A DNA stretch of 64,000 nt from Thermoplasmata archaeon (GTDB lineage Archaea > Thermoplasmatota > Thermoplasmata > Lutacidiplasmatales > UBA184): assembly GCA_022750375.1 (NCBI GenBank), contig JAKIVU010000001.1, positions 30,695 through 94,694 on the forward strand. Direction: 5' to 3'. The notes under the pieces are model-generated. The model was not told the origin of the DNA. It saw nothing but the letters and a program-made list of their open reading frames with translations, and did no database searches. Positions 1 through 14,433 of this stretch are shown piece after piece. The translations under genes and the position numbers were made by a program. Position 1 is the stretch's first letter, and every line of letters begins with the position of its first letter.

Positions 1-636
1 GCTCGGGTGAGCCGTGACTCCGAGGACGAGCGTCGCATCCTCCAGAACCAAGTCGACAACCTTCGGGCGTACTGCTCGAGAATCGGACTCTCCCTAACCG
101 AAGCAAACGAATTCGTCGAGATCGTTTCGGGAGGGAAGGACGACCGCCCCGAACTGAACCGTCTCCTCGCGGCCGCCAGTCTCCAACGAGGGCGGCCGTT
201 CGACGTCGTCGTGTTCACGAGCTTGAGCCGAATGACCAGGGGTGGGATCGGGAGCGCACTCTACATCCTCGACCGCCTTGCCGCCTCGAAGGTGAGCTGG
301 CACTTCGTGGATCAGCCGCTACTCAACTTCGATTCAAACACTCCAAAGCTCGCGAAGGACATCATCCTCAGCGTTCTCGCCGCCGTCGACGCGGACTACC
401 GCGACCGGATCTCCAAAGCGACGAGGGCGGCGTATCAGAGCCGAGTGAATCTTGCCGCCGGTTCCGGTACGACGGTTCGGTGGGGACGCCACAAGAAGAC
501 CTGCGTTTGCGAAAGGTGCGCGAAGCGACGCGGGGAAATGGGGTCCCCCCCTCTCCATTCTCGTCCGGGATCGGCTAAGGAAATAGGGGCTATTTCCCCG
601 ACAGCGACCCAACCCCTATCGGCTCTTCGGACGTGA
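1..636 (+). CDS. Serine recombinase (resolvase/invertase catalytic domain), 5'-truncated by window edge; Cys-containing C-terminal tail instead of an HTH
   Basis: The window opens in frame with ARVSRDSEDE (catalytic Ser context). Downstream resolvase-type motifs are IVSGGKDDRPELNRLL, VVVFTSLSRMTR and the E-helix RDRISKATRAAYQ. A C-terminal HTH is absent, which is consistent with an IS607-like or small serine recombinase whose HTH is N-terminal and upstream of the window. Confidence 0.75.
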   Translation, partial: ARVSRDSEDERRILQNQVDNLRAYCSRIGLSLTEANEFVEIVSGGKDDRPELNRLLAAASLQRGRPFDVVVFTSLSRMTRGGIGSALYILDRLAASKVSWHFVDQPLLNFDSNTPKLAKDIILSVLAAVDADYRDRISKATRAAYQSRVNLAAGSGTTVRWGRHKKTCVCERCAKRRGEMGSPPLHSRPGSAKEIGAISPTATQPLSALRT

Positions 637-890
637 TACCACCGATGGGGAACGTCTACGTCGCGGTCGGGTTCGCGGCGTTCGCGTCGGTCCTCGAGAT
701 CGTCCTCGTCGTGCTATCCGAGCCACTCTTCATCTTGGTCACGGTCGGTCTCGTACTCGTCGCGACGGACTTGCTATTCGTCAGCTGGCATCCTTACGCG
801 GTCCTCACGAGCCTCGGGATCTACATCTTCGCCGTGATCGTCGGTCTCGTCGGTTTCAGCGTGCTCGACCTCATTCTCAACGTGGTTTGA
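633..890 (+). CDS. Small hydrophobic membrane protein, hypothetical
   Basis: The 85-aa ORF is almost entirely hydrophobic (2-3 TM). Its GTG start overlaps the recombinase stop as GTGA, giving translational coupling. Confidence 0.4.
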   Translation: MIPPMGNVYVAVGFAAFASVLEIVLVVLSEPLFILVTVGLVLVATDLLFVSWHPYAVLTSLGIYIFAVIVGLVGFSVLDLILNVV

Positions 891-1255
891 GGGAGCACGA
901 AGGAACGATGAGCTTCGAAAAGGGATCCGTCCACATCGAGATCGGTTGGGCCGAACTCTCGCAAGATTCAGACCCCGAGACCAGAGTGATGCGACTCGCG
1001 ATCGACGAAATCCAGGGGAAGTTCCACTACGCCGATGACGAAGCCCAGTACGTCGCCGATGACCCGGGGTTTCAAGAGTCCTGCCGGAACGCAGTTCGTG
1101 AGGCTCGTCGCCGGCAGTATCGACTCGATCGAAAGGCTCAGCCGTTGCCGGCGGGCACCGTTCCGAACCCGGCCGCCCAGCGCTTCCGAGTCAAGATCAC
1201 TTTTCCCCGTCCCGGGACGAGAGGGATTTTTCAGAGGGTCTTGACAGAGGACTAG
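887..1255 (+). CDS. Hypothetical protein
   Basis: The ORF overlaps the upstream stop by 4 nt, with a TTG or downstream ATG (908) start. No recognisable motif. Confidence 0.3.
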   Translation: MREHEGTMSFEKGSVHIEIGWAELSQDSDPETRVMRLAIDEIQGKFHYADDEAQYVADDPGFQESCRNAVREARRRQYRLDRKAQPLPAGTVPNPAAQRFRVKITFPRPGTRGIFQRVLTED

Positions 1256-1294
1256 TTCGCCGGTACCTGTGAGCGGGACGCGATCTCCGTTCGA

Positions 1295-2230
1295 TCACTC
1301 GTCCGTCTCGGTCTCCGGCACGGACCTAATCCCCTTCGGTCCCCTGGCTCCGGCTAACGAAACGATCGCGGCTCGGTTAGCGATTTCGTAGGCCCGCTTG
1401 ATCAGTTCCGGAACGAGACCTTCGAACTCATCGATGTGTTCGCGTAACGACTTCGCGAATGCCGGAAGCGCCCGTTCGGTGGCGACCTGGACCAGGATCG
1501 ACGGCTCGGAGAAACCGATCCGCTCAACGAGGATCGAGGCGTAGCCGGGTCCGGCCTTTAGTTCGAAGTCATCACCATCGCCGAGCCGAACCTCGAACAA
1601 CTCCCCATCGAGGACGAGGACCGGGAGAACCAGTCCTCGGTTTGCGGCGCCGCCCTGTGTCGACAGAATCGCGAGAGCCGCGTCGATTACCTGAGCGACC
1701 TTATCTCGCCAGGGTTCGTCCGCCTCGGGCAAATCGTCCTTAGCCTCCCGGTCCTTTGACTTGCCGGCGTGGAATCCAACTTGCCGGATCCCGTACCCGA
1801 ATGGTGATGGGAACGTGATTAAGTTCGGCGGAACGCCCTCCTCGTCCAGGTACTCAGCGATTGCCTTCCCCATGTAGTAGGACGCCCCGGTCCAGAGCCT
1901 GGCGTCCCATTCGGCGAAGAGGCTCGAGTCCGGACCATCGTGCGGGAAGATGATCCACGGTTGGTCCGCCGAGTAGACGCACTCGAACACGCAGTTTACG
2001 GTGAACTCGACGTCGGGCGATCCCCGATGAAGGACGTCCTGCGTCCGAATGTCAATCTCGCGGAACTTGCCGGTCGACTCGCTCCGGTAGCTCGGCCACC
2101 GAGACACGTCCGAGAATCCAGCCTGCCGGAGTGTGCGAGCAGTTCGAATCTCGAGAGGATACCCGGTCTTTCTGAGCCAAGCCTCGGCCATCTTCTGCAG
2201 GTCTTCGGTCGAGGGACGCACAGTCGACAT
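1295..2230 (-). CDS. Hypothetical protein, possible restriction-endonuclease-like fold (fourth gene of a minus-strand operon)
   Basis: The 311-aa ORF has N-terminal pattern GKFREIDIRTQDV ... PDVEFTVNCVFECVYS, which resembles the D ... (D/E)xK-like beta-strand core of PD-(D/E)xK / NERD / Hjc-type nucleases without a canonical Lys. The rest is unknown. Confidence 0.45.
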   Translation of the reverse strand: MSTVRPSTEDLQKMAEAWLRKTGYPLEIRTARTLRQAGFSDVSRWPSYRSESTGKFREIDIRTQDVLHRGSPDVEFTVNCVFECVYSADQPWIIFPHDGPDSSLFAEWDARLWTGASYYMGKAIAEYLDEEGVPPNLITFPSPFGYGIRQVGFHAGKSKDREAKDDLPEADEPWRDKVAQVIDAALAILSTQGGAANRGLVLPVLVLDGELFEVRLGDGDDFELKAGPGYASILVERIGFSEPSILVQVATERALPAFAKSLREHIDEFEGLVPELIKRAYEIANRAAIVSLAGARGPKGIRSVPETETDE

Positions 2231-2317
2231 GGGTCGTGCCCGAGCCCGGAGAAGGTAGACGCCCGCATTCAGTTTGCGGGCGGCCCGTCTGTGGTAAGAA
2301 TCGGACCGTCGAGGTCG

Positions 2318-2911
2318 CTAGAGTCGAAATTTGTTGGAGACCTCTATCGGGAACGGACCCAGGTTGTACTGCCTTCCGTTGAAACTGTCGAGGTAGATGA
2401 AAATCAAAATCTCAGTAGTTCCCTCCCTCTTCGGCAATAATGAGACCTCAAGCTCCTGTTGGTCACGCCCGCTGAGAGGGAAGGTGGTGACCGGCTGATT
2501 GCTCGGGTGCAGAAGAATCTCGGCTGGCCCGAGAAGGTCTCCGTAATAGATCGCCGAAGGGTCCTTTTTCCTGGTTCGGGGAGGATCACCGTACCCCACT
2601 CCGACCGTCCTCGTTTGGCGGCCAAGGTTGTCGACCCTAAGCTGGAAGTGGACCCGTGACTGAGGGTGTACGTTCAGGTGTTTCGAGAGAACCGTAGTCC
2701 GGAGAACGTCTCCGGTACGCTCGGCCCATCTCGTTCGGAGATACTCGCCACCACCCGCCAAGATGAAAATGATGACCGAGACGATCAATCCGACGATGAA
2801 GTAAACTAAGTCAGCCGTCCCGCCCCCAAAGCTGCCAGTATCGGTCACGAGCCCACCGGATGATGGTTCAAGGAACTGGCCGGGTTCGCTTCCTGCGGGT
2901 CTTCGGAGCAC
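2318..2911 (-). CDS. Membrane-anchored hypothetical protein (N-terminal TM, extracytoplasmic C-terminal domain)
   Basis: One strong TM helix (LVYFIVGLIVSVIIFILAG) sits near the N-terminus. An alternative GTG start at 2848 would leave a 19-nt gap to the upstream gene. Confidence 0.45.
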   Translation of the reverse strand: MLRRPAGSEPGQFLEPSSGGLVTDTGSFGGGTADLVYFIVGLIVSVIIFILAGGGEYLRTRWAERTGDVLRTTVLSKHLNVHPQSRVHFQLRVDNLGRQTRTVGVGYGDPPRTRKKDPSAIYYGDLLGPAEILLHPSNQPVTTFPLSGRDQQELEVSLLPKREGTTEILIFIYLDSFNGRQYNLGPFPIEVSNKFRL

Positions 2912-3854
2912 TCGAAGGTTTCAGAGGACGGAGCGGCTTCGCCCGAGCGATGGCCCTCGCCGGTGCGGCGAAGGCCGGCTCGATCTGACTCCACGTCGCT
3001 CTGACCTTGGCCTCCACGGTAGGCTCGTCCAAGCTGGCGGTGAGTCGGTTGATCCCGTCGAACAGGTCACCCAACCCGATCACTTTTGAGATTTCGCGTA
3101 ACTCGCTCTCGTCGGGCATCGTGAACAATATTCCACCATACTTTCGGAGTCCGTCGGCTACGCCTTGAAGTGTTTTGGGAAACGGAAGCCCCTCCGGCAG
3201 CTTTTCGGGGATGCTTGTTAGCGGGGCGTCGAGTAGACTGAGGAAGACGATCGGGCGAACCGAACCCTCAGTCGTGAGCATCAGCATGGTCTTCGGGGGG
3301 AGTCTGCCATCAGCCCGAAGTAGGCCGATGGCCTTCGATAGTTGAGTCGTGTCGTCCAGCTCGACCTTCGTCATACTCTCGAGCAGGGTCCCTATCGACA
3401 GATCTGCGTCGGCAAGCGGCTCTCCGGTCTTGACCTCAGTGTGGGGAACAAGGTCAGCCGGAACGAGGAAGCCCTCGGCGGCCTCCCGCCGGAGCTTCGG
3501 AGTCAGGAACCTTGCCAGGGGCTCGTCGAGAGTCCCGGACTTCAGACTCTCGATCAGGGTCTCCTTGTCCACGCGCGCGATCCGACCGACGCCTTTCGCT
3601 TCGAGGTGGATATCTCCGGTCGGGTGGATTGAGAGTTTCAGAGGGTTCGGAACCAAACCGGGCATCATGAAGACGTAAAGACTCTCGTCGCGCGCCCGAA
3701 CAGTCTTCGTGAGTCGAAGCCCCAGTGGCGGAGAACCGTCCTTCGGCGGATTCGCCACAATCCGAAAGTCACTCTTGTCCTTGACCATCGCTTCTCCTCC
3801 CGAATCGCTACCGATCGAGACAGAACGTCGACTTGTTCTTCCGAACGATATCAT
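2868..3854 (-). CDS. Hypothetical protein with basic C-terminal tail (probable start at 3788)
   Basis: Long ORF with balanced composition. The C-terminus KPLRPLKPSSAPKTRRKRTRPVP is Lys/Arg/Pro rich. The internal Met (MVKDKSDF) at 3788 removes the overlap with the upstream gene. Confidence 0.5.
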   Translation of the reverse strand: MISFGRTSRRSVSIGSDSGGEAMVKDKSDFRIVANPPKDGSPPLGLRLTKTVRARDESLYVFMMPGLVPNPLKLSIHPTGDIHLEAKGVGRIARVDKETLIESLKSGTLDEPLARFLTPKLRREAAEGFLVPADLVPHTEVKTGEPLADADLSIGTLLESMTKVELDDTTQLSKAIGLLRADGRLPPKTMLMLTTEGSVRPIVFLSLLDAPLTSIPEKLPEGLPFPKTLQGVADGLRKYGGILFTMPDESELREISKVIGLGDLFDGINRLTASLDEPTVEAKVRATWSQIEPAFAAPARAIARAKPLRPLKPSSAPKTRRKRTRPVP

Positions 3855-4350
3855 CCGAATAATGACCTCCCCGGTTAGCCGGAGAAGCGACTACCCGGTA
3901 CGCGACGTGCCCGAACCGTTGTTCTGCGTTCCGAATCTTCGCGGTGAGATCGGGAGCCCAGTTCTTTCCTCCCCATCTCGCCGACACCTTGTTCTGCCCG
4001 CTCCTGAGCCACTCGATGACCATGCCGTCTCCTATGATCTCGAGGTTCTCGCCCGAACGAGCGGGCCGATTTTTCTCGAGTGCATAATAAACCGCGACGA
4101 AATCCGAACCCTCGTTTCCCTTCATGTACGACCCTTTGGCTGCTTGATCGAACGGAGCAAGGTCGAAGTTGACGATGTCGCTCATGGCAAGCGTGGTGTG
4201 AGACTGAAGAAACTCCCGCTCAACGGGGACGGATACAGACTCAAGCTCCGGCTCCATGGTCTCGGCCACGAAGACCATCACTCGTTCTCCGGGATCGGGG
4301 CTACCAGATGGTCCGGAGTCGACCCAAATCCGTCGTGGGCGTGGCGGCAT
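3808..4350 (-). CDS. Hypothetical cytoplasmic protein (first gene of minus-strand operon)
   Basis: 180-aa ORF with no TM. It is co-oriented and tightly spaced with the three genes downstream. Confidence 0.45.
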   Translation of the reverse strand: MPPRPRRIWVDSGPSGSPDPGERVMVFVAETMEPELESVSVPVEREFLQSHTTLAMSDIVNFDLAPFDQAAKGSYMKGNEGSDFVAVYYALEKNRPARSGENLEIIGDGMVIEWLRSGQNKVSARWGGKNWAPDLTAKIRNAEQRFGHVAYRVVASPANRGGHYSDDIVRKNKSTFCLDR

Positions 4351-4436
4351 GCTCTGACGGCGTAATCCTCGGTTGGCTATTCAAACACCCGGTCGCCGGG
4401 CGTCAAGTGCTTTAGGAGGAACCGGAGTCGGGAGGC

Positions 4437-4919
4437 ATGGATTGGGCCTCATTTGCGGAAGGGTTAGTCGCCGGGGTCCTCCTAACCACCGTAAGCGGCT
4501 TCCTCGTGAACTTTCTGCAACCGCTCGCCCTTCACTACGGGAAGAAGCTCCTCCCGTCGAAGCCGGCACAGAAGCAACAAGTGAAGGCCGAGATCGAACG
4601 CGAAGGCCCAAAGGCCGACTTCGACCTTGTCGAATCAGTAGCAAAGATTGTTGGTACCGCGCTGCAAGAGTTCGTCACAGAGATGGAACCGTTCTTCTCC
4701 GCGTGGATCCAGGCGACCAGTGGCTTCGCGACCGGCGTGAGCGCGATCGTTGTGGCCGCAGAGTTCCTCTCGGTCCTCCTGATCGGTGAGTACCTCGGCG
4801 TCGACGTTGTCGGGCTTGTGCTCGGCCTGGCCGCGAGCGTGATGGTTGTAGGGGCGATCGAAGTCGGGCTCGCAGAGCGGATGTTTCGGAAGGCGAAACT
4901 CGGACCGAACCCGAAGTAG
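4437..4919 (+). CDS. Hypothetical membrane protein
   Basis: The 160-aa ORF has an N-terminal TM and a C-terminal double TM (SAIVVAAEFLSVLLIG ... LVLGLAASVMVVGAI) with a charged middle. It immediately precedes the AAA+ gene. Confidence 0.4.
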   Translation: MDWASFAEGLVAGVLLTTVSGFLVNFLQPLALHYGKKLLPSKPAQKQQVKAEIEREGPKADFDLVESVAKIVGTALQEFVTEMEPFFSAWIQATSGFATGVSAIVVAAEFLSVLLIGEYLGVDVVGLVLGLAASVMVVGAIEVGLAERMFRKAKLGPNPK

Positions 4920-4934
4920 GACCAATTCGGCAGG

Positions 4935-5801
4935 TTGCGGGAGGACATCCAGATGAATTTCGACTTTCGACCACGGAACCTGGATGAGGTGCTGGGCCAG
5001 CCCAAGGCCGTCGCGATCCTGCGCAAGGTTGTCGCGTCGCTCAACCGGGGCGTGTCACCGTCAAACGCACTTTTCTTCGAAGGCCCGCCCGGTACCGGTA
5101 AGACTAGCACCGCGTATGCACTCGCGGGCGAGATAACGAACTCAACCGTCTGGGAGCGGAACTGTGGGGAGTCGACTGCCGTCAGTCTTCGTGAGGAGCT
5201 AGAGTCAATCGCTGGTCATCGGGACTGGAATGACGGCAACTCTCGGCTGATCGTTCTCCTTGACGAGTTCGAGCGGATCACGAAGAATGATCGGATTTCG
5301 CTTCGAAGGCCCCTCGAGCTGGCTGCCTCCCATGCACTCATTGTGATAACGGCGAACGAAGAGATTGGTGATCCCGGCCTCGAGTCTCGAACTCGGCTCG
5401 TCGAGTTTGTTCGACTTGACGATGGGGCCAGTCGCGCCCTTATCGCTCGAGTGTCCTCGCGTCTCGGTCTCCGTCCTTCGGAGGCAGCGATTCTATCCGT
5501 CATTCGGGACAGCAAAGGGGACGGGCGGGCGATTCTCGACAACATCCGAATAGTCGAAGAGGACCTCCTCGCCGAGCCCATGCCGGCACCATCTGCCGAA
5601 GAACCGCTCGGTCGGTCGAAGGGGGGTCGGAAGAGGGCCGACGTCGACGCTGAGCGATGTGCCGAGCTTCGACGACAGGGAATGTCGTGGACGCAGATTG
5701 GCAAGTCGGTGGGTCACCCGGCGTCCACGGTACGAGATCGTGTGCTCGAAAAGTACCCCGACCTAGCGGGAACCCCCTCCGGGAACCCTTCCGGAAACTA
5801 G
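4935..5801 (+). CDS. AAA+ ATPase, RFC/clamp-loader-like core fused to a C-terminal HTH domain
   Basis: Walker A is GPPGTGKTS, Walker B is IVLLDEFERI, sensor-1-like is VITANEE, and GDGRAILDNI resembles the RFC small-subunit GDMRxAxNxL motif. The C-terminal ELRRQGMSWTQIGKSVGHPASTVRDRV is a sigma-70 r4 / LuxR-like HTH. Confidence 0.7.
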   Translation: MREDIQMNFDFRPRNLDEVLGQPKAVAILRKVVASLNRGVSPSNALFFEGPPGTGKTSTAYALAGEITNSTVWERNCGESTAVSLREELESIAGHRDWNDGNSRLIVLLDEFERITKNDRISLRRPLELAASHALIVITANEEIGDPGLESRTRLVEFVRLDDGASRALIARVSSRLGLRPSEAAILSVIRDSKGDGRAILDNIRIVEEDLLAEPMPAPSAEEPLGRSKGGRKRADVDAERCAELRRQGMSWTQIGKSVGHPASTVRDRVLEKYPDLAGTPSGNPSGN

Positions 5802-5850
5802 CGAATCGGGGTTTCCGGAGGGGATTCCGGTATAGGTTTCCGGAGAGCGG
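5779..5850. repeat. Cluster of TTCCGG(A) half-palindromes including two exact GGTTTCCGGAG copies 25 bp apart
   Basis: Read directly in the sequence: tccggga(5779), ttccggaa(5789), ggtttccggag(5810-5820), ttccgg(5825), ggtttccggag(5835-5845). The cluster straddles the stop of the AAA+/HTH gene. Confidence 0.5.
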
Positions 5851-6016
5851 TCAGGCCCGCCTCCGTTCGGTCCGTTCCTTCCGGCTACGCGACGGGTCTA
5901 TCGCCTCTCGACTCTGATGTAACGTCTCACCCGGTCGGACCCCGGAGACGAGAGGACATCCGGTGAGTCGACCCTCCACGGGGAATCTGTCGATGGGGTT
6001 TCTTCCTGGCATCGAG

Positions 6017-7279
6017 CTACCTCTTCGCCGTCCGAAGGGCAACCTTCGCTCGATTGCAGAGAAGGCGGACGGCTGCGCGGGACACCCGAATTCTCTTTTC
6101 GTCAAGGAAGACCTCGACGTCACCCATCGAAAGCCTGGTCAGACCCCTCTCCTCGGCCCAAGCAACACACTCGGCGACTAGCGGTTCGATTCGGGTCCGC
6201 TCTTCTTCGGCAAGGCTCGCACTCAGGTCCATCGATAAGTCGTCTGCGATTTTCTGGACCAGAAGATCGAGAGGAGAGCCATCGTGAGGAACTCCCGGGA
6301 ATAATCCGGCCGCCGGGGCTGGTAGCTCTAACTTCGTGGAGAGGAATCGGCGGAAACCCTGTTCGATAGAGAATCGACTCGTCTCGAGCGGGCCCGGGCG
6401 CTGTTTCATCCCGGCGACGAACTCCTGAACGAACTCGTCTTTCCGAGTAGTCAGCGTCTCGAGAGCCCCCGAGTTGTCGGTATTGGGTTGCTCGTCGGCC
6501 TCTTCTTCGTCGATCCCCGCCCATTCGGCGGTCTTCAGTAAGACATGGAATTCGCCGTCAAACAGGAAGGCGAGTTCGACGAGCCAAGTCTCCCCGACGT
6601 GCTTCGCCCGCTCCGGATTCTCGTCGCCTTGACCAACTATCGCCTCGTTCAGGTATAGTACTTTGGCCCCGATCTTCTTCGCGAGAGTCAGAAATTCGGT
6701 CGCGTCCTCGCCCGACCAAGTTACAGCCTCCTCGGTCGGGAGGTTCCCTCGGAAAGGGAAGATTGGAAGCTCGGCCGCCTTACGCACATCGTCGGCGAGT
6801 TCGCTTAGGGTTCCACGATCCTTGGCCACGGTATCAAACCCGGAATGGCAGACTTCCCCTTCAAGCGCTCGGTCGGGAACTGCCCCGTCGATGACCTGGC
6901 CGCCGATACCGATGTTGAGGGCTTGGAGAAACTCGGGCGATAGACTCGAAAGGGCGAGGCGCTCAAGAGAATGCGGCTCTATCTCGACCTCAGCGTCGAC
7001 ACAGGAATCCGGCTGGACTACACGTCCCAAAAGAACGGAGGCGCTGAATGCTTCGCCCGCTCGATCATCTCCTGGATAGATGGCAACTTGCCGAAATCGA
7101 CGGTCGGCGGCGTCATGATCCACCAAACTCGCTGCCCGGATAACCTCGCAGCCGGGGATGTGACGTCGCGGACCCGATAACGGGCGGTATGAAGGTCTCG
7201 ATTGAAAACGTCGCGCGACTCGATCTCGACGATATAATCCATCGCCGGGTAGGGCGACTGGATCGTAACGTCCCACCAC
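6017..7279 (-). CDS. Hypothetical protein (start uncertain; ORF N-terminus overlaps the upstream gene by about 260 nt)
   Basis: Long ORF with acidic stretches and no recognisable motif. The true start is probably internal, since the first ~87 aa are Arg-rich and overlap ORF 7018-7809. Confidence 0.4.
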   Translation of the reverse strand: MVGRYDPVALPGDGLYRRDRVARRFQSRPSYRPLSGPRRHIPGCEVIRAASLVDHDAADRRFRQVAIYPGDDRAGEAFSASVLLGRVVQPDSCVDAEVEIEPHSLERLALSSLSPEFLQALNIGIGGQVIDGAVPDRALEGEVCHSGFDTVAKDRGTLSELADDVRKAAELPIFPFRGNLPTEEAVTWSGEDATEFLTLAKKIGAKVLYLNEAIVGQGDENPERAKHVGETWLVELAFLFDGEFHVLLKTAEWAGIDEEEADEQPNTDNSGALETLTTRKDEFVQEFVAGMKQRPGPLETSRFSIEQGFRRFLSTKLELPAPAAGLFPGVPHDGSPLDLLVQKIADDLSMDLSASLAEEERTRIEPLVAECVAWAEERGLTRLSMGDVEVFLDEKRIRVSRAAVRLLCNRAKVALRTAKR

Positions 7280-7809
7280 TCGTCCGGGTCGGGATCGAGG
7301 TACGTCCGGTATGCCCCAACAGTACCCGTCGTCGGCGCCTTGAGATTCGCCTTACGGACGAGCGCCTTTGCTTCGACAGTTTCCGGGAACATGAACCATG
7401 TAAACTTGACGTCCTTCGCGACCCCCGGTCCTAGGTTTCGAATTGCCAGTCTGGGGCCTTCCAAGCCGGGGCCAGTTGTCGGGCCAGGCGGACCGGCTCC
7501 AAGAGCTAGAGTAGCGAGCACCGGACTCGGTCGATGAGAGGCCCTGGTTGTGTCGATCGAGCTGACCGCGGAGACGAGTCCAGCGAATGCCAGCGCAAGC
7601 GTCCCGGTAGCGAGCAACGCCTCGACCTGGTCCGAGATTGAAACCGGCGGTAACCAACCCGCGGGCCAGTGCCAACCCGCATCGAGACCGAAAATCAGAG
7701 CGACAATCTGACCGATGATTGCGAGACCTAGGATCGCAGCGAACTGCGCCCGGTTTTTGTAGAGCCACTCGTCGGCTTCCCGACGACCGAGCCAATCCCA
7801 GAGTCCCAC
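7018..7809 (-). CDS. Hypothetical membrane protein
   Basis: The N-terminal region has 2-3 TM helices (FAAILGLAIIGQIVALIFGL, LATGTLALAFAGLVSAV), followed by a soluble domain. Confidence 0.45.
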   Translation of the reverse strand: MGLWDWLGRREADEWLYKNRAQFAAILGLAIIGQIVALIFGLDAGWHWPAGWLPPVSISDQVEALLATGTLALAFAGLVSAVSSIDTTRASHRPSPVLATLALGAGPPGPTTGPGLEGPRLAIRNLGPGVAKDVKFTWFMFPETVEAKALVRKANLKAPTTGTVGAYRTYLDPDPDEWWDVTIQSPYPAMDYIVEIESRDVFNRDLHTARYRVRDVTSPAARLSGQRVWWIMTPPTVDFGKLPSIQEMIERAKHSAPPFFWDV

Positions 7810-8047
7810 GTCGGCCGATTGGTGCCACCGACTTCAACCTGCCGCCGGCCTCGTCCCAGCCGAACGGAGGCGTCGGCTGTCGGAGGTGGCCGATCCGACT
7901 ACAGGGACCCGGTTTAATCCCGCACTGACCCCCAAATCGACGGCGTGGCGGGTTTTGACCCCAAAAACGGGGTGTGGGGCCCCCCGAGTCCAGAGACGAC
8001 CCCGTGTGGGTCTATTCTCGTCCCTTCCGGACCATGGGGGCCTTCGC

Positions 8048-8512
8048 TTACGGTTCGCGATTGCCGCGCTTGGCGGCCTCGTAAACGACGCCGATGATGA
8101 CAGCTGCGGCGAGCCAGCAGAGAAGCGCGAAAACGAGCGGCGAGACCCCGATTTCGGACGCGAGCCCTTCGGATAGTGTACGGTCGAACAGGAGCCAAAG
8201 TTCGATTGCGACCACCACGACGAAGACGAACGCGAAGCCGACCCAATCCGCCAGGCCCACAGACTGCCCAAGATGGATTCGAATACTGGACTTTGAAGGT
8301 ACTGTTCGATGATCGGAGGTCGTCGGGCGTTTGCAGGCCTTAGAATCGTCAGCGAGAACCTTGGGATTATGGCGGGACCGCTTTCCCGCAGTAGGAACAG
8401 AACCCGCCGGCCCTCTGGCCCCCCACTCCCCCAGGCGGGGCTGATTCGAATGGTCGGTGACGCTGCGCGAGACTTTCGCCGATGACTGGTCCCCACGGAG
8501 TTCCCGTGGCAT
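8048..8512 (-). CDS. Hypothetical membrane protein (possibly only the C-terminal about 65 aa; GTG start near 8255)
   Basis: The C-terminus has two TM helices. The 5' part overlaps the zinc-ribbon ORF in another frame, suggesting either a shorter gene or a frameshifted relic. Confidence 0.3.
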   Translation of the reverse strand: MPRELRGDQSSAKVSRSVTDHSNQPRLGEWGARGPAGSVPTAGKRSRHNPKVLADDSKACKRPTTSDHRTVPSKSSIRIHLGQSVGLADWVGFAFVFVVVVAIELWLLFDRTLSEGLASEIGVSPLVFALLCWLAAAVIIGVVYEAAKRGNREP

Positions 8513-8600
8513 TCATACGCAGAAGGAGATACCCTCGCATGGCCCGAAAGCGATTCGCGTACATTTCTAGCGGCGACACGGCCTTCAAGCTCGGCGTCAA
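8367..8600 (-). CDS. Small protein with C-terminal zinc-ribbon (GGFCSYCGKAVPP), paralog of 9241-9624 C-terminus
   Basis: The C-terminal FCSYCGK motif, and about 45 nt of DNA encoding it, is nearly identical to 9246-9294. Confidence 0.35.
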   Translation of the reverse strand: MTPSLKAVSPLEMYANRFRAMRGYLLLRMNATGTPWGPVIGESLAQRHRPFESAPPGGVGGQRAGGFCSYCGKAVPP

Positions 8601-8784
8601 GGGGATTGAGATCTACATCTCGGCCGCCGATCACCCGAACAAGAAGGAGGCAGTAGTTGGAACGCTCTTCGTCGCGAAGGCGGGGATTCGTTGGCTCCCG
8701 AAGAGAGGGAAGGCAGTCCTCAAGGGAAAGCACGTGGCGGGCTACAAAATCTCTTGGGACGAACTGACCGCGATGGTCCCGTAG
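8541..8784 (+). CDS. Hypothetical small basic protein
   Basis: MARKRFAYISSGDTAFKLGVKGIEIYISAADHPNKKEAVVG... has clean composition. ORF track entry is 8482-8784; the internal Met at 8541 is preferred. Confidence 0.35.
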
Positions 8785-8900
8785 TCGGGCCGTCCGACCC
8801 CTCCACAGAAGGGTGAACCGTCCGACGACGGAGCCGGTCCTCTGGTTCGACCTCGCGATCTAGGTATCTCCCGTTCAGCGTTCGGCGGGGATTGACGGAC

Positions 8901-9383
8901 TCACTCGTCGGGTTCTACCTTCATTCCGAGAATGTGCTTGGCGTGCCCCAGCATGACGAGAGCGCCGCCAACATCTCCGGTAGCAAAGGCTTGCTCGGCC
9001 TGAGCCAAGTATCGTCCGGCCGCCTGATACATTCGCTCCCATCCTCCGTCGTAGAGAACGGCATCGATTTTGGTCTCGAGCGTCACCATACGATGTTCGA
9101 ACTGCGTCCTTGGATCCTCGGTTTCGCGCCTCGACCGGACCATAGCTCCCCTGCTTCGGATATCGAGGGGCAACTTCAAAGAGATGTCGTTCGGCGACCC
9201 GTGCTGGACGGGCTCAGCCCGGCCGCCAGCGAGTCTAGAGTTACCGGGGCACTGGTTTGCCGCAGTAGGAGCAGAATCCACCGGCCATCTGGCCTCCAGC
9301 CCCGCACGACGGGCAAAATCGAGTTGAACCGCCGGATGGCGGCGGGGGAGGAGGAGCCGGCGACTGGTATTGCGGCGGCGCAT
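8901..9383 (-). CDS. Hypothetical protein (likely only the C-terminal ~80 aa from Met at 9140)
   Basis: The full ORF overlaps 9241-9624. The C-terminal part MVRSRRETED...GHAKHILGMKVEPDE is compositionally protein-like. Confidence 0.3.
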   Translation of the reverse strand: MRRRNTSRRLLLPRRHPAVQLDFARRAGLEARWPVDSAPTAANQCPGNSRLAGGRAEPVQHGSPNDISLKLPLDIRSRGAMVRSRRETEDPRTQFEHRMVTLETKIDAVLYDGGWERMYQAAGRYLAQAEQAFATGDVGGALVMLGHAKHILGMKVEPDE

Positions 9384-9624
9384 ACATCTGACGGTTCGCC
9401 TGAGCGGCGTTCATTGCAATCTGCTGTTGGAGGAGCATGTTGGTCTGCGCCTGTTGCTGACTCATCCTCTCGGCGTCCCCCCTCGCGGAGATCCCGGATG
9501 CGAGTAGAACGATTCCAATGATGAGTAACACAATTCCAAGCAAGATGCCGATAATAGTCACGAAGAAGACTATCCCGGCGAGCAGGAACAAAACTCCAAA
9601 GACGATTCGGACTATCCCTGCCAC
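9241..9624 (-). CDS. Membrane protein with N-terminal double TM, Gln-rich linker, poly-Pro and C-terminal zinc-ribbon
   Basis: MAGIVRIVFGVLFLLAGIVFFVTIIGILLGIVLLIIGIVLLASG then QQQAQTNMLLQQQ, then PPPPPP and CPSCG...FCSYCGKPVPR. Confidence 0.5.
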   Translation of the reverse strand: MAGIVRIVFGVLFLLAGIVFFVTIIGILLGIVLLIIGIVLLASGISARGDAERMSQQQAQTNMLLQQQIAMNAAQANRQMYAPPQYQSPAPPPPPPSGGSTRFCPSCGAGGQMAGGFCSYCGKPVPR

Positions 9625-10157
9625 GACTCCGCACCCTCGTCCCGGGTGATAATACCGTTGAGGAACCGTTCAGAGCCACCAGGTCGAATTCTCACGAGCC
9701 TCGAGAGCTCGAATCTCAGGGGCATTCGGGTGGACCGCGCAAGGCGCGAGGTCGAAGCACACCGAGCAGATGACCGGCCCGAATCTCGGGGGTCGAGGCA
9801 GAGTGGCCCTTCTCTCCTTCCCCGCCCAAGCCCTCTGGGCCTGCTCGGTATCGGACTTTCCCGATTCTTTCGGACGAGCAATACAGGTCCGAAGGCGTCC
9901 GGCGGTATGCATCTTACGCAGGTTCGCGGAAGCATTCCATCATTCAATCGGAAGTATTGCCGACGAACCGAGCCTCCGCTCTCTAAGCTGGCAGAATCGA
10001 TACCCCAGGGCTATTGTGAAGGAGGTTCGACCGCAGGGTGGCTCGGATAGCCGCTGCCCCGCATCGAGCGAACCAAAGCCTTAACGGCGCCAACAAGGAT
10101 AGGAGTCCAGCCCAGCCGGCCCGGGATCGAACGTTCCAGTGCGTGGGGGAGGTTCAG

Positions 10158-10427
10158 ATGCGCTCACCAAAACTCGCCTTTCTCATCGTATCGTGTATAG
10201 TTGTCAGCGTCGGCGTGGTGGTGTTCGTGGCGGCCTATCTCGCAGGCTGTGGGGGATCGCAGCAGACTGGCTGTCCTCCCCTAGGCTGTAACTCCGGCAC
10301 AACCGCCACTTGCGAAGCGCCACTCGTAGAGGCCGCCGGGGGCCTCCTCATCGCCTCCGGTTCCGCTATCGCCGTTTTGCTTACCGTAAGGGCGAACTGG
10401 CCACGACTCGCGCAACTCGACACCTGA
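10158..10427 (+). CDS. Small membrane/secreted Cys-rich protein
   Basis: An ATG is preceded by GGAGGT 5 nt upstream. The protein has an N-terminal TM (LAFLIVSCIVVSVGVVVFVAAYLAG), then Cys-rich CGGSQQTGCPPLGCNSGTTATC, then a second hydrophobic segment. Confidence 0.45.
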   Translation: MRSPKLAFLIVSCIVVSVGVVVFVAAYLAGCGGSQQTGCPPLGCNSGTTATCEAPLVEAAGGLLIASGSAIAVLLTVRANWPRLAQLDT

Positions 10428-10503
10428 TCGAATCAGAGTTCCACATAACACGATGTGCACCGGTAACCGGACGGCGATCTTTCAGTTTGGACCGGAGCGT
10501 CAG

Positions 10504-11925
10504 CTATGTGACGATCAAGGACCAAAACGTGAGATAAGTCTCACCGTTTGATTCGACGGCGTAGAGGGCCATGAGGTAGGTGCCAACGGCAAAACCCGAT
10601 GGCAGGCTCACTATCATCTTTGCATTTGGAAGGTAAAAGTAAGAATCTGCCTGCACAGTCGAGGATGCCGGTGAAAAGGAGACGTCACCGCAGGGGACAG
10701 AGCAGAAGTTGTATTGGTAGCTCACCGGAAAACCGTAGGAAGGGTCCGCCAACGGGTCTATCTCGGCGTCAATGACGCGAGGAGCAGTATTGCTAACCTG
10801 GACTGTAAATTCGCCGTTCCCAAACCACGTCCCGACCCACGAAGCGAAGTTTTCGTTGGAGATATTCACTTCATTGTATGGACTGTTCCAGAATGATTCA
10901 TACTGGCCCGGGAAGCCTGTCGGCGGGCTGACGCTGTATGTCGTCCAAGAAATTTGGTAGGCAGCTGAGGGAGGCGTTTGCGCGACGATTGACGTGTGTA
11001 AGTTAAACGCAGGCCATGCCTCAACAGGATTATTCCCATAATCCTCTTCGTAATCTGTAAAATCGTCCCAGGCAACGATGGGATTCCAGCACTCCTGTGT
11101 ATAGTCTGCCAACACGAAACTCGTTCCCCCGGTGTACCAGGTTCCTGATCCGATAACCGTGCCCGCACCATTGGGACCCTGAACCTGGAAGGAAACTGTG
11201 CCGCCAGAGATCGACATAGTAAACCGGTATGACTCAGAATATGCGAGTGGGCCGTACGAGAAGGAGTAGTACGTTGTAGCGCAACTCCACCACCCCACCA
11301 CGCCGAACGAGAAATATGCGCACCAGTTGCCCGTGTTGTAGCACGGACTCGAGGTCTGACTAACCGACCACTGACCGCCCTGGCTTCCCGCGCCGACGAT
11401 TCCCATCTGGTCGTAGACGTATCCATTGTCGAAAACCGAGGCGCCAATGAAAACCGTGTCACCTTCGGACGAGCTTTGTGGGGTCGTTATGTTAAAAGTC
11501 AGTTTTGTCACGTAGAAGGCCATACCGTGACTATCAAGCGACCCGAACTTCCAGTCACCAGGGCCGCCACCCGAGGTCACGGCGGACTGGCCAAGAAGAT
11601 GCGATGTGGCGGGTCCGGAGAATCTCGGCGGACCAGAATAGGCGGGAGCGACGACCGACGGACCTGTCTCGTTGTCTCCTCCATCGGCCATGGCGGTCTC
11701 CTTTCCGTGATCCAGAACTGAGGAGTTCGTTTCGAGATTTACGCGGTCAAGAGTAGAGGACTTCTCGATCCCGGAATCTGTATGGTCCGCCGAAGGAATT
11801 TGGACCGGAAAATCCCGTGCATTGCTCGCCTCGCCGTAGCCGCTACTGACGACGAAAAGCACCGCGAGCGAACAAATGGAGAGGCCCACAACTAGGGAAC
11901 GGTGCGACTTCGAACGAGCCGCCAC
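10504..11925 (-). CDS. Secreted aromatic/Ser/Thr/Gly-rich beta-type protein (speculative: glutamic-peptidase/thermopsin-like or lectin-like)
   Basis: It has an N-terminal signal/anchor (LVVGLSICSLAVLFVVSSG). 473 aa rich in W, Y, S, T, G, and it carries many N-x-S/T sequons. VAWDDFTDYEED is faintly reminiscent of the G1 peptidase WIVEDF motif, but this is unverified. Confidence 0.55.
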   Translation of the reverse strand: MAARSKSHRSLVVGLSICSLAVLFVVSSGYGEASNARDFPVQIPSADHTDSGIEKSSTLDRVNLETNSSVLDHGKETAMADGGDNETGPSVVAPAYSGPPRFSGPATSHLLGQSAVTSGGGPGDWKFGSLDSHGMAFYVTKLTFNITTPQSSSEGDTVFIGASVFDNGYVYDQMGIVGAGSQGGQWSVSQTSSPCYNTGNWCAYFSFGVVGWWSCATTYYSFSYGPLAYSESYRFTMSISGGTVSFQVQGPNGAGTVIGSGTWYTGGTSFVLADYTQECWNPIVAWDDFTDYEEDYGNNPVEAWPAFNLHTSIVAQTPPSAAYQISWTTYSVSPPTGFPGQYESFWNSPYNEVNISNENFASWVGTWFGNGEFTVQVSNTAPRVIDAEIDPLADPSYGFPVSYQYNFCSVPCGDVSFSPASSTVQADSYFYLPNAKMIVSLPSGFAVGTYLMALYAVESNGETYLTFWSLIVT

Positions 11926-12171
11926 CTGTTGGCATAGGCCTTTCGTCTATTTCAACCAATGACGAAGGGGCCGATTTTCAACGGTCTGGAGCGAAGTTCA
12001 GATACGTATGGAGTCGTGGGCACTTGACCGAGGTGGCCTTCGAGTTCGAGATCGCGGTTCGGCTTTCTTCGGAATAACAGCGCGACACCCAAACGCGGAC
12101 TGGGCATCAAAGAGCGCCACAGAAAGGCCCCGGACAGAGGTCACCGGTTTGAGTCAGGTTTAAGCGCCTTT

Positions 12172-12783
12172 GTGGGCTCCGAGAAGAATCCGGTTGTTGG
12201 GTACGGGACACCGTGCGGAACGGGGTTTAAGAACTCTATGGAGCAACAGTACCGCATGGAGTTCGCGGCGGGGTTGCATGCCCAAGAAGTGCAACGCATC
12301 TCCGCGGGCGATGCAATACGCGCCGTGCTCATCTGCCCCGACGGCGAGCAGGACGGTCGGCTGACGTTCGGCGCGCCTATTCCTGGGCGGACGAGATTGA
12401 TGAAGGAGCTATTTCTGGTGTCTCGGGAAACAGAGGTGGGCCAGGCTGGGGCATTCGGATTCGAGTTCACTCCGGGCCCTTACGGTCCCTCCTCAGTGGA
12501 GGTCCAGCATGAACTGGACCGATTGACGACCATAGGCGACGTGCTCCAGGACCCACTCGAGCGTGGGGACGGGACACTCGTTCGAATCTCCGAGAGGGGG
12601 TACGAGTGGGCCAGATCTATCTGGTCGGCGCTCCCTCCTGAAACGGCGCGTGGGTTCTACTCGATCAAATCTAGATTCAATCAGGTTCCGTATGCCGCGC
12701 TGATGTTCTACGTTTACTCTGCCTACGCAGAATTCACTGCGAATTCGAGGATCCGAGAAGAGGTCCTGGGCCCTCACGCATGA
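12172..12783 (+). CDS. Hypothetical protein with Panacea (DUF4065)-like segment; candidate antitoxin
   Basis: RLMKELFLVSRE ... FGFEFTPGPYGPSSVEVQHELDRL resembles the Panacea/SocA-like pattern (KLxKLLYxxD ... FEAWxYGPVxPEVY). The likely start is Met at 12238. It overlaps the downstream gene by 4 nt. Confidence 0.4.
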   Translation: MGSEKNPVVGYGTPCGTGFKNSMEQQYRMEFAAGLHAQEVQRISAGDAIRAVLICPDGEQDGRLTFGAPIPGRTRLMKELFLVSRETEVGQAGAFGFEFTPGPYGPSSVEVQHELDRLTTIGDVLQDPLERGDGTLVRISERGYEWARSIWSALPPETARGFYSIKSRFNQVPYAALMFYVYSAYAEFTANSRIREEVLGPHA

Positions 12784-13553
12784 CACCCCCCGACCCCGCG
12801 CTCGTCGGCGCGTTGGTCGTCGCGGCAATCGGAGTATCGGCCGACATCTATTTCCTAGGGGGTGCGAAGTTCGCCCGACAATACGAGAAGGAGAGCGAGG
12901 AGTTCTACAAGGAGAATCATCAGGTTTGCCGAGACATGGACGAACTCGCTGGCGTCAGCTTCACGAGGGCGTTGATTACTTCCGAACTTTGGAGAATCGG
13001 AACCGTGGGGACACCGGTTGGCGATCCGTCCGATGAAGAAACGAGGATTCAGGCCCTCGAGGTTAGAATTCGGCAAAGCTCAGGGAAGGTGCGGACCGAC
13101 TTGGACAATCTAACGACTCAGTTCCGGACCAGGACCGGGAACAAAGAGAAACTTGAGAAGCTGCTCTCGTTGTACGAGAAGTGCGCCGGATTGACGAAGA
13201 AGGCCTGGGCATCCTTCGCGATTCTGATCTCCGCCCTCGCAATCATGTTTGCGTGGTACGTTTCCATTCCGAATGGTGTGAATTCAACCTGGTTCGTCCT
13301 CTTGGGGTTGGCGGCATTCGTCGCGGGAGCGGTCACATTCGATGCGGCAACGGATTGGCAGCGTGACAGCGCTGCTCTAAAGAAGTGTAAGACCGAAATT
13401 AAGACAACCATTCGCACGAAGATTCACTTCCCGGAGTCAGACGTGGCGGGCCTTCAAGCACCACCTGCCGCGCCAAGGCCCGCGCCTGTGGGCGCCGTGG
13501 GACCGGCGATGGGACCGACCCCCGATTCTGGAGCCGGGAAAACCGGGCACTAG
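12780..13553 (+). CDS. Membrane protein with coiled-coil middle; candidate toxin partner
   Basis: It has an N-terminal TM (ALVGALVVAAIGVSADIYFLGGA), a charged coiled-coil, and two further TM helices (ILISALAIMFAWYVSI, FVLLGLAAFVAGAVTF). It is translationally coupled (ATGA) to the upstream ORF. Confidence 0.45.
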   Translation: MTPPDPALVGALVVAAIGVSADIYFLGGAKFARQYEKESEEFYKENHQVCRDMDELAGVSFTRALITSELWRIGTVGTPVGDPSDEETRIQALEVRIRQSSGKVRTDLDNLTTQFRTRTGNKEKLEKLLSLYEKCAGLTKKAWASFAILISALAIMFAWYVSIPNGVNSTWFVLLGLAAFVAGAVTFDAATDWQRDSAALKKCKTEIKTTIRTKIHFPESDVAGLQAPPAAPRPAPVGAVGPAMGPTPDSGAGKTGH

Positions 13554-13662
13554 GTCGGGAAGGTCAATCCCTCCCGCCGATCGACGCCTATCAGTTCTCG
13601 AGGCGCCAATTCAATCATGGCGGCGATTCACTTTAGGACTGCGAAAGCGAGACTAAGCTAAG

Positions 13663-14433
13663 CTACAGGCCCGATTCCCGGACGGGCGACCGTTCCTTAA
13701 TCCCTTCTGCCCTCGACGGGCGCGGCGGGCTGCCGGCGGACGCGATGAGGTGCGCGAGGCGGAGTGGCTCGGGCCAGTATCCGCGGACCGTCGTACGCTG
13801 GACGAGCCTCGTCGCGTCGGTCGCGCGGCACCCCACGGCCGCGGCGAGGATCGGCTGCTCTCCCGTCGGGACACGAAACAGCCGATGAGCGCGGAGCAGC
13901 TTCCAGCGACGATCGGCGTCCGTCCCGAACCAGGTCCGAAGCGCGGCGTGGATGCGGGGAAAATCCGGGGGCCGTCGCGTGACCGCGACGACCGGGATCC
14001 CCAGCGCTTCGTGGAGTCGGTCGAGGTCGAGCACGTTGAACCCGCCGACCACCGCCCCATCGACGAGCAGGGCCCGGATCCCGTCGATCGCCGAGGTCGA
14101 CCGCACGAGCGCGACGACCGCTTCCGTGCCGTCCGTCCCGTCCACGCGGACCCGGGAGCGCCGCACCGCCTCGACGTAGGAGGGACTCGATACGACCACG
14201 GCGGCGATCGGCGCGAACGCCTCGCCTCGTCCGAACGCGCCGTCGTCGACCCCGACCACGCGGGGATGATCCTTCGCGAGGGACCGCCTCAAGGCTAAGA
14301 CAGGGGCGGAGCTTGGTCGGGGCGCATGGCGGGAACGACGGTGGCGGTCCGCTGCCCGGTCTGCGGGGCCGACCTTCGGGTCTCCCTCGCGGCGCAGCCT
14401 CCGACGCAGTGGTTTCCTTGCCCGCAATGCCAT
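13663..14433 (-). CDS. DUF99 / UPF0215 family protein (endonuclease dU-like); true start probably near 14298
   Basis: VVGVDDGAF near the N-terminus is the DUF99 hallmark. The length is consistent with the family. The first ~45 aa (Arg-rich) would overlap the divergent gene and are probably not translated. Confidence 0.55.
   Translation of the reverse strand: MALRARKPLRRRLRREGDPKVGPADRAADRHRRSRHAPRPSSAPVLALRRSLAKDHPRVVGVDDGAFGRGEAFAPIAAVVVSSPSYVEAVRRSRVRVDGTDGTEAVVALVRSTSAIDGIRALLVDGAVVGGFNVLDLDRLHEALGIPVVAVTRRPPDFPRIHAALRTWFGTDADRRWKLLRAHRLFRVPTGEQPILAAAVGCRATDATRLVQRTTVRGYWPEPLRLAHLIASAGSPPRPSRAEGIKERSPVRESGL

Follow-up and report, generated by a model that had tools for sequence, protein, structure and literature searches.

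Most characterised archaeal integrative elements use tyrosine integrases. Genes for tRNA-Arg(TCT) are among the most used archaeal integration targets, and targeting of the 5′ end of a tRNA gene is rare but documented in archaea, in pTN3-like integrases and in CalSub-E1 (PMC8371274; PMC6563490). In the reviews consulted here, serine recombinases in archaea are mentioned only in transposons (PMC8371274). Here we describe a 64-kb stretch of contig JAKIVU010000001.1 from a Thermoplasmata archaeon (the window), which begins with about 13.6 kb of lower guanine-plus-cytosine (GC) content and whose first gene encodes a small serine recombinase. An initial annotation, made from the letters alone, had proposed this island as a candidate integrated mobile element or defence island. 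We found that the low-GC stretch is a genuine insertion into a tRNA-Arg(TCT) gene. By analogy with related elements, positions 1-13654 probably represent the distal (right-hand) part of an integrated plasmid-like element of the tyrosine-integrase type that targets the 5′ end of this gene, a reading that we favour with some reserve.

The closest described systems are similar to this locus in different respects. In the pTN3 or TKV4 type of the Thermococcales, an archaeal element resides in a tRNA gene and a partial copy of the 5′ side of the tRNA is left at the distal junction; the geometry proposed here would likewise place the full tRNA divergently, beside the integrase. However, the remnant in the window has only 18 nucleotides (nt) rather than half a tRNA, the host belongs to the Thermoplasmata, and the integrases of the related elements form a divergent family of 450 amino acids (aa) with Tyr in place of His in the HxxR box. 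The likeness considered here is one of geometry. The pT26-2 family and the thaumarchaeal integrated mobile genetic elements share with this locus a low-GC island, a tRNA target and a variable cargo that is mostly unknown (PMC6563490). A D5-like primase-helicase or a Prim-Pol is a further common trait, found here in the relatives of the window element. These systems differ from the present family, in which a small serine recombinase lacking a helix-turn-helix (HTH) and a small membrane protein regularly stand between the backbone and the cargo.

The GC content is 0.596 in positions 1-13600 and 0.681 in the remaining 50 kb, with the step located at ~13.6-13.7 kb. The tetranucleotide distance to the host profile is 0.34-0.44 for the island (4-kb windows), compared with 0.140 ± 0.017 (maximum 0.188) for host windows, which places the island >12 standard deviations (SD) above the latter. 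The lower GC content seen initially was therefore real, and the tetranucleotide calculation proposed as its check gave a composition that is not uniform. The island holds 17 genes annotated by NCBI (L3J68_00175 to L3J68_00255; MCI4338736.1-MCI4338752.1) and ~20 plausible open reading frames (ORFs). The initial count of about 20 ORFs holds as a count of plausible frames; almost all have no known family, and about half contain transmembrane (TM)-like segments in a TM scan. Only the recombinase and an AAA+ ATPase gave Pfam matches. AGA codons occur at 5.3 per 1000 in island genes and at 0.5-1.2 per 1000 in host genes; they are thus 5-10 times commoner in the island, and rare rather than absent in the host.

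The right junction was mapped to the base, between positions 13654 and 13655, by alignment with 8 relatives, within the range of 13.55-13.66 kb expected initially. On the reverse strand, positions 13672-13655 read GGGCCTGTAGCTTAGCTT, the first 18 nt of the tRNA-Arg(TCT) of the relatives, and the sequence beyond is unrelated. The start of the tRNA overlaps the last 10 nt of the ORF of Endo_dU in the window, as it does in the relatives. For comparison, species-representative genomes were scanned for loci with Endo_dU, which gave 80 related loci (loci of this study carry L numbers), 73 of them from Thermoplasmata-type metagenome-assembled genomes (MAGs); the loci extend up to 10 kb beyond the tRNA. 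An intact tRNA-Arg(TCT) on the same strand, recognised by its 5′ end, anticodon arm and 3′ end, follows Endo_dU in 66 of the 73 Thermoplasmata loci, usually at a distance of no more than a few tens of bases. Of the seven remaining loci, four are contigs stopping within or at Endo_dU (L032, L048, L064 and L076). From 13637 rightwards, all ORFs of the window are collinear with the related loci, with up to 78-96% aa identity to L010, and no ORF of 1-13636 has a homologue in any of the 80 loci (tblastn, E<1e-6). The right flank is collinear, the island genes are absent from the site in relatives, and the tRNA is interrupted; therefore, the segment is a true insertion into the tRNA gene. Its foreign composition, its absence from the same site in relatives and its start right after nt 18 of the tRNA identify it as an integrated mobile element, and this part of the initial proposal is strongly supported by the empty site in the relatives.

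The other half of the tRNA is not in the window. ARAGORN found zero tRNA genes in the whole 64 kb, neither a tRNA nor any other Rfam family was matched in 1-16 kb, and no second copy of the 18-mer, no anticodon arm and no tRNA 3′ end is present in the 64 kb. Flanking repeats inside the window are short and at chance level. In the relatives, the tRNA is followed by genes for which the 64 kb contain no orthologues; therefore, the left junction lies to the left of the window, as had been suspected, and an inversion that moved the other half of the tRNA within the window is ruled out. AGA is used by the host and heavily by the island, so a functional tRNA-Arg(TCT) should persist somewhere.

The junction also bears on whether foreign DNA was misjoined to the host contig at the tRNA during assembly or binning. 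The source is a MAG and the breakpoint falls in conserved tRNA sequence, as such a chimera would have it. However, the shared 18-20 nt of tRNA are shorter than the k-mers typical of metagenome assemblers, and the arrangement is exactly that expected of a biological attachment (att) junction. We regard a chimera as highly improbable.

Some features of the target gene were observed in passing. The tRNA-Arg(TCT) beside Endo_dU is ~107-112 nt long (L010:10755-10861, L008:10755-10861 and ~60 other loci), with an insertion of ~32 nt that appears to lie inside the T-loop (TTCAAA on one side, T-CCCGA on the other), where an intron would be non-canonical. With ARAGORN, the gene is given odd lengths (74-91 nt) or is missed (L012, L013, L021, L031 and L070). 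The four contig ends at Endo_dU suggest frequent assembly breaks, as expected at a variable integration hot spot. L031 has a further copy of the tRNA 3′ end, which was considered as a sign of another element and dismissed, since the match has 14 nt, is attributable to chance and shows no compositional change.

The serine recombinase at the left edge of the window matches MCI4338736.1 at 100%, a protein encoded on a 157-kb contig of a Thermoplasmata MAG. The protein is annotated from a GTG at nt 7, and the frame is open from nt 1. Compared with a 217-aa homologue of 88% identity, ~12 N-terminal codons are cut off, and 34 annotated features of the assembly precede the gene. The contig would thus either start at or close to window nt 1 or extend some 30 kb further to the left. 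The recombinase is the leftmost gene because the window (or the contig) starts inside it. The island does open with a small serine recombinase, as first described: the PF00239 match covers model positions 5-138 of 145 in a protein of ~223 aa, which consists of the catalytic domain, helix E, an RWGR-x-K motif and a short basic tail with Cys and His residues. In the family alignment, R-x-S is invariant, the serine lies in YARVS, the catalytic residues are kept in the window protein, and a conserved RWGR(P/H)xK motif after helix E is followed by 20-60 variable basic residues. The homologues come from uncultured archaea and mostly have ~170-250 aa, with one of 315 aa. In full-length homologues, the catalytic domain begins within ~10 residues of the N-terminus. 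An H-x3-C-x-C-x2-C motif occurs in the tail of the window protein and of a few family members.

No HTH was found in the recombinase with Pfam, NCBIfam or the alignment, and PF00239 was the only domain detected, with neither the recombinase domain nor the zinc ribbon of large serine integrases. It also has no N-terminal MerR-like HTH and no TnpB-like neighbour, and its NCBIfam IS607 match scores 27 bits against a cut-off of 110. With the γδ (Tn3) resolvase, Sin and Hin it shares the N-terminal catalytic domain and its YARVS serine, helix E with a basic G-R motif behind it, and an accessory position on a plasmid or element. However, the resolvases and invertases have a C-terminal HTH that the window protein lacks, and the family profile scores higher with the catalytic domains of IS607-type TnpA and TP901-1 than with resolvases. 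Against solved structures, the family profile placed the catalytic domain of ISC1926 TnpA (1.6e-15) and TP901-1 integrase above γδ resolvase, which was matched over residues 1-147. The large serine integrases (phiC31, TP901-1 and Ccr) differ in having 450-700 aa with a recombinase domain, a zinc ribbon and a coiled coil, compared with ~223 aa here. IS607 family members differ in their N-terminal MerR-like HTH and their ~2-kb elements, often with tnpB, none of which applies to the window recombinase. Among sequenced plasmids, the recombinase has only matches of ~33-35% identity, in Hymenobacter. No relatives were found in IMG/VR or GenBank phages, and a protein search of species-representative genome contigs returned zero relatives.

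The setting of the recombinase was examined in six related elements from metagenomes and MAGs, and all six carry a serine recombinase together with a tyrosine integrase. In four of them (L001, L006, L116/117 and L119/120), the integrase abuts host genes at the edge of the element and the recombinase is internal, 7-9 kb downstream. L001 (8.8 kb) encodes a recombinase with 88% identity to that of the window. The nucleotide homology spans only window positions 1-867, which hold the recombinase and the 85-aa membrane protein; homology of the window to L001, L002 and L003 ends alike at ~867. Upstream of the L001 recombinase are small ORFs, a D5_N/DUF5906 primase-helicase and, as the first gene, a 454-aa integrase. 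In L006, on a 53-kb contig, an integrase with 32% identity to the 454-aa protein (E 9e-57) lies directly beside tRNA-Ala(TGC). An exact repeat of 17 nt, composed of the last 13 nt of the tRNA-Ala and 4 nt more, recurs 15.1 kb away before an ABC-transporter gene. The 15.1-kb element so delimited has a serine recombinase (61% identical to that of the window) in its middle. In L116/117 and L119/120, homologues of the 454-aa protein (59% and 44% identity) are the first element gene beside host genes, followed by Prim-Pol or helicase-like genes and methyltransferase genes and, ~9 kb downstream on the same strand, by a Resolvase-domain gene. The L116 and L119 resolvases are 34% and 24% identical to the L001 recombinase and were missed by tblastn with the window protein. 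In L102, a 7-kb low-GC island, the recombinase (50% identity) is immediately followed by an integrase (PF00589, 6e-20), which stands at the island edge; a tRNA-Arg(ACG) predicted there was rejected as a false positive inside a 1150-aa ORF. L115 has a PF00589 integrase and a Resolvase gene of a different serine-recombinase family, followed by homologues of the terminal gene pair of the window.

The ~450-aa proteins are, as judged from their conserved residues, divergent tyrosine recombinases. All 8 sequences compared (34-60% identity to the first) have R153, K197, Y293-x-x-R296, H323 and Y331 without exception. The profile of the 8 sequences has Pyrococcus abyssi XerA as its best PDB match (E 0.015), with the Arg, (H/Y)xxR, His and Tyr aligned, and the single 454-aa sequence gives a weak Pfam Phage_integrase match (E 0.01). 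A two-sequence profile gave only spurious TAL-effector matches, and hhalign against the L102 integrase was uninformative.

A separate observation concerns L004 and L005. At L004:5517-5699, and likewise in L005, adjacent genes for tRNA-Arg(TCT) and tRNA-Ile(TAT), which decode rare A-ending codons, lie between DNA methyltransferase genes. This mobile-element-like stretch also encodes a homologue of the serine recombinase (53% identity).

The six elements suggest that the element in the window is one of a loose family with a common backbone: a tyrosine integrase at the edge, a replication and modification module (primase-helicase or Prim-Pol, and methyltransferases), the serine recombinase with its small membrane protein, and a variable cargo. 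In the relatives the corresponding left part spans ~7-9 kb; here, where it is unseen, it would contain the integrase and the replication module. The integrase would recombine an attP with a short core, ~18 nt long, at the tRNA gene's 5′ end. The tRNA is oriented away from Endo_dU and towards the element, and the left junction would therefore have the integrase beside a reconstituted, full minus-strand tRNA-Arg; positions 13655-13672 would hold the other copy of the duplicated core. The recombinase probably serves as an accessory enzyme and not as the integrase, because its counterparts are internal in four related elements (in L102 the recombinase directly precedes the edge integrase) and because it has no DNA-binding domain of its own. 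It may, for example, resolve multimers of a circular form. The initial annotation had considered the island unusual in being bounded by a serine recombinase. This does not agree with the internal position in the four relatives, and the bounded appearance most likely results from where the window begins.

Several observations weigh against this assignment. The 64 kb contain no detectable tyrosine recombinase; the window includes neither the integrase nor the replication module nor the left junction, which are attributed to this element by analogy. The related elements use different targets, none with 5′-end tRNA targeting: L006 uses the 3′ end of tRNA-Ala, and L116 and L119 have no adjacent tRNA. 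The att 18-mer is absent from L001-L006. No res, hix or other resolution site was identified. Moreover, in its catalytic domain the recombinase resembles IS607 transposases and large serine integrases more than it does classical resolvases, and it may therefore yet have a direct role in mobility.

The last point leads to the proposal that integration was carried out by the serine recombinase itself, located at the left end of the element and acting by a 2-bp crossover in the D-loop region of the tRNA-Arg, so that the tRNA would be split and not duplicated. The recombinase is the leftmost visible gene, the start annotated at nt 7 hints at a contig beginning at that point, and the nearest catalytic domains are those of IS607 TnpA, large serine integrases and XisF. 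Only 18 nt of tRNA are present at the junction, with no second copy in view, which also suits a split gene. However, the protein has ~223 aa and no large-integrase domains, HTH or N-terminal MerR-like domain, and every one of the six related elements has a tyrosine integrase. Splitting the sole decoder of AGA would also be costly, given the use of this codon in host and island. We consider this explanation unlikely. It is likewise unlikely that the HTH-less serine recombinases of ~180-230 aa in Thermoplasmata elements form a distinct functional class, which would either perform self-integration into the 5′ part of tRNA-Arg or have a new role, such as inversion or the control of excision, with the small membrane protein and the tyrosine integrase as partners. 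If true, these would form the first family of archaeal integrative elements to rely on a minimal serine recombinase.

The features of the island and its right border are listed in Table 1. Membrane-borne or secreted proteins without a known function make up most of the cargo.

Table 1. Features of the island and of the adjoining host sequence, with positions in the window.
Position	Strand	Feature	Basis
1..636	+	Small serine recombinase, 5′-truncated by the window edge (MCI4338736.1 / L3J68_00175)	Pfam Resolvase PF00239, E 1.3e-19
633..890	+	85-aa two-TM protein, conserved partner downstream of the recombinase (L3J68_00180)	68% aa identity to the post-recombinase gene of L001-L003
887..1255	+	122-aa hypothetical protein, start of the variable cargo	No match in Pfam, PADLOC, PHROGs
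1295..2230	-	311-aa protein, predicted N-terminal restriction-endonuclease-like PD-(D/E)xK fold	D60, E83 kept; lysine replaced (E-C-V)
2318-2911	-	197-aa ORF, one TM segment, no known family	ORF list; TM scan
2868-3854	-	328-aa ORF, no known family	ORF list
3808-4350	-	180-aa ORF, no known family	ORF list
4437..4919	+	160-aa membrane protein, three TM-like segments (L3J68_00210)	TM scan
4935..5801	+	288-aa AAA+ ATPase, clamp-loader (RFC) type, C-terminal HTH-like segment	Pfam AAA 1e-8, RuvB_N
~6017-7015	-	~330-aa ORF, start uncertain, no known family	ORF list
7018-7809	-	263-aa ORF, two TM segments, no known family (L3J68_00225)	TM scan
7810..10427	.	Small ORFs on both strands, gene calls uncertain (3 annotated genes)	
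8367-8600; 9241-9624	-	Two paralogous small proteins, C-terminal CxxC...CxxC zinc ribbon	Weak zinc-ribbon Pfam matches
10158-10427	+	89-aa two-TM protein	TM scan
10504..11925	-	473-aa protein, N-terminal signal/anchor, rich in Ser/Thr/Gly/Tyr/Trp (L3J68_00245)	Predicted secreted/surface
12256..12783	+	175-aa winged-helix protein, first of the terminal pair (L3J68_00250)	Fold most like that of the DarG chain in the DarTG complex
12780..13553	+	257-aa membrane protein, three TM-like segments, second of the terminal pair (L3J68_00255)	TM scan
13554..13654	.	Non-coding right end, arm adjoining the attachment site	Alignment with relatives diverges here
13655..13672	-	First 18 nt of host tRNA-Arg(TCT), GGGCCTGTAGCTTAGCTT, attachment-site remnant	Single exact match, 0 expected by chance
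13663..14433	-	Endo_dU (DUF99), first gene of the collinear core region running into the ribosomal-protein operon	Pfam Endo_dU 3.8e-48; 80 related loci

The protein first described as nuclease-like has a predicted restriction-endonuclease-like fold, and the two acidic residues are kept, but the lysine of the motif is replaced. The motif position holds K in most family members; in the window protein and the homologues closest to it, V, T or A stands there instead. The family comprises >1000 clusters at 50% identity, with proteins of 260-300 aa; no Pfam model exists for it, and sequence comparison reveals no relative of solved structure. The three ORFs that follow it (2318-2911, 2868-3854 and 3808-4350) overlap one another in series.

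The ATPase has a PHROG clamp-loader match (2e-18) and a PDB RFC3 match (1e-15), with weak HTH matches at residues 227-270. Its NCBIfam match to the RFC small subunit (9e-20) is far below the family cut-off. At the sequence level, these matches bear out the RFC-like ATPase with an HTH that had been proposed. A search of the island recovered neither tandem repeats nor an array of clustered regularly interspaced short palindromic repeats (CRISPR); an imperfect tandem repeat with a 12-nt unit in 3.1 copies (5810-5847) lies after the ATPase gene, and a chance-level Rfam snoR9 match (5774-5823, E 0.57) lies beside it. The two zinc-ribbon paralogues share a 73-nt direct repeat, D1 (8367-8439 and 9241-9313), with 74% identity, and match over 22 aa with 77% identity. 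The 73-nt repeat encodes the zinc ribbon of both proteins, of which at least the one at 9241-9624 has an N-terminal membrane segment.

The island has only its first 867 nt and its terminal gene pair in common with any of the related elements. This limited sharing would suit a decayed or composite island, in which the remains of one or several integrations at a tRNA-Arg hot spot have lost the rest of the tRNA and the integration module by deletion and are immobile. The poor gene calls at 7.8-10.5 kb, the PD-(D/E)xK-fold protein without its motif lysine, and the contigs of L032, L048, L064 and L076 ending just upstream of the tRNA position can be read in the same way. However, most of the ORFs are long and intact, and the recombinase keeps its catalytic residues. 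Furthermore, the junction inside the tRNA is clean, and its remnant is of core size, comparable to the 17-nt core of L006. We consider such a decayed island unlikely and retain the distal part of an integrated plasmid-like element as the preferred reading.

In the terminal gene pair, the start of the second gene overlaps the stop of the first by 4 nt. A pair in the same order and with the same 4-nt overlap occurs in L113/L114 and L115, where the identity of the second gene is 47-48% and the pair adjoins integrase and resolvase genes. The arrangement resembles the PanA-PanT (Panacea/DUF4065) and DarTG systems in being a two-gene cassette whose first protein is a predicted winged-helix protein with the DarG chain as its best structural match. 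The 'YGPS' motif of the first protein recalls the GPV signature of Panacea, and the second protein is predicted to be membrane-borne, like several PanT toxins (PMC8832971). However, Pfam DUF4065 has no match in 12172-12783 even at E<=1, the gene order and roles are assumed, and the toxicity is putative. The pair may possibly be toxin-antitoxin-like, which would help the element to persist. As for the putative toxin-antitoxin pair of the initial annotation (12256-13553), a conserved, overlapping gene pair was found, while its role is only putative.

The proposal of a defence island was not upheld. PADLOC recognised no known defence system among the ten larger island proteins scanned and returned only weak, partial matches, namely P-loop-level matches for the ATPase and one candidate family (PDC-M19A, 7e-8). 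A provirus rather than a plasmid-like element would be in line with the virus-like neighbourhood of the recombinase relatives in L004 and L005, which includes several DNA methyltransferases and rare-codon tRNAs, and with a long opposite-strand block of unknown genes in L115 that could be structural. However, PHROGs detected no capsid, portal, terminase or other structural family among the island proteins; apart from the clamp-loader match of the ATPase, it matched the 203-aa ORF to one family of function unknown and nothing else. Together with the lack of recombinase relatives in IMG/VR and GenBank phages, this makes a provirus very unlikely. A megablast search of the plasmid database with the island gave zero matches.

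On the host side, a pyridoxal phosphate (PLP)-dependent enzyme lies to the right of Endo_dU, followed by ribosomal protein L3 and the ribosomal-protein operon up to SecY. A dip in GC content at 30-32 kb (0.644; 29452-32077) was considered as a second island and rejected, as this is where the operon ends with SecY and an EMC3/TMCO1-like membrane protein.

None of the rival explanations is favoured by the data. The element is best read as one of an ordinary kind, an archaeal tRNA-integrated plasmid-like element, and as mildly unusual in its 5′-end tRNA targeting and its conserved HTH-less recombinase. The result does not overturn the reliance on tyrosine integrases that is ascribed to archaeal integrative elements. 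One base-precise integration event, of the rare 5′-end type, is added to the small catalogue of mobile elements of uncultured Thermoplasmata. Archaeal elements with serine recombinases have been little studied, and the recurrent backbone of integrase, replication module, HTH-less recombinase and membrane protein is a reasonable target for follow-up. The PD-(D/E)xK-fold family and the toxin-antitoxin-like pair may be of use in mining archaeal elements for new functions.

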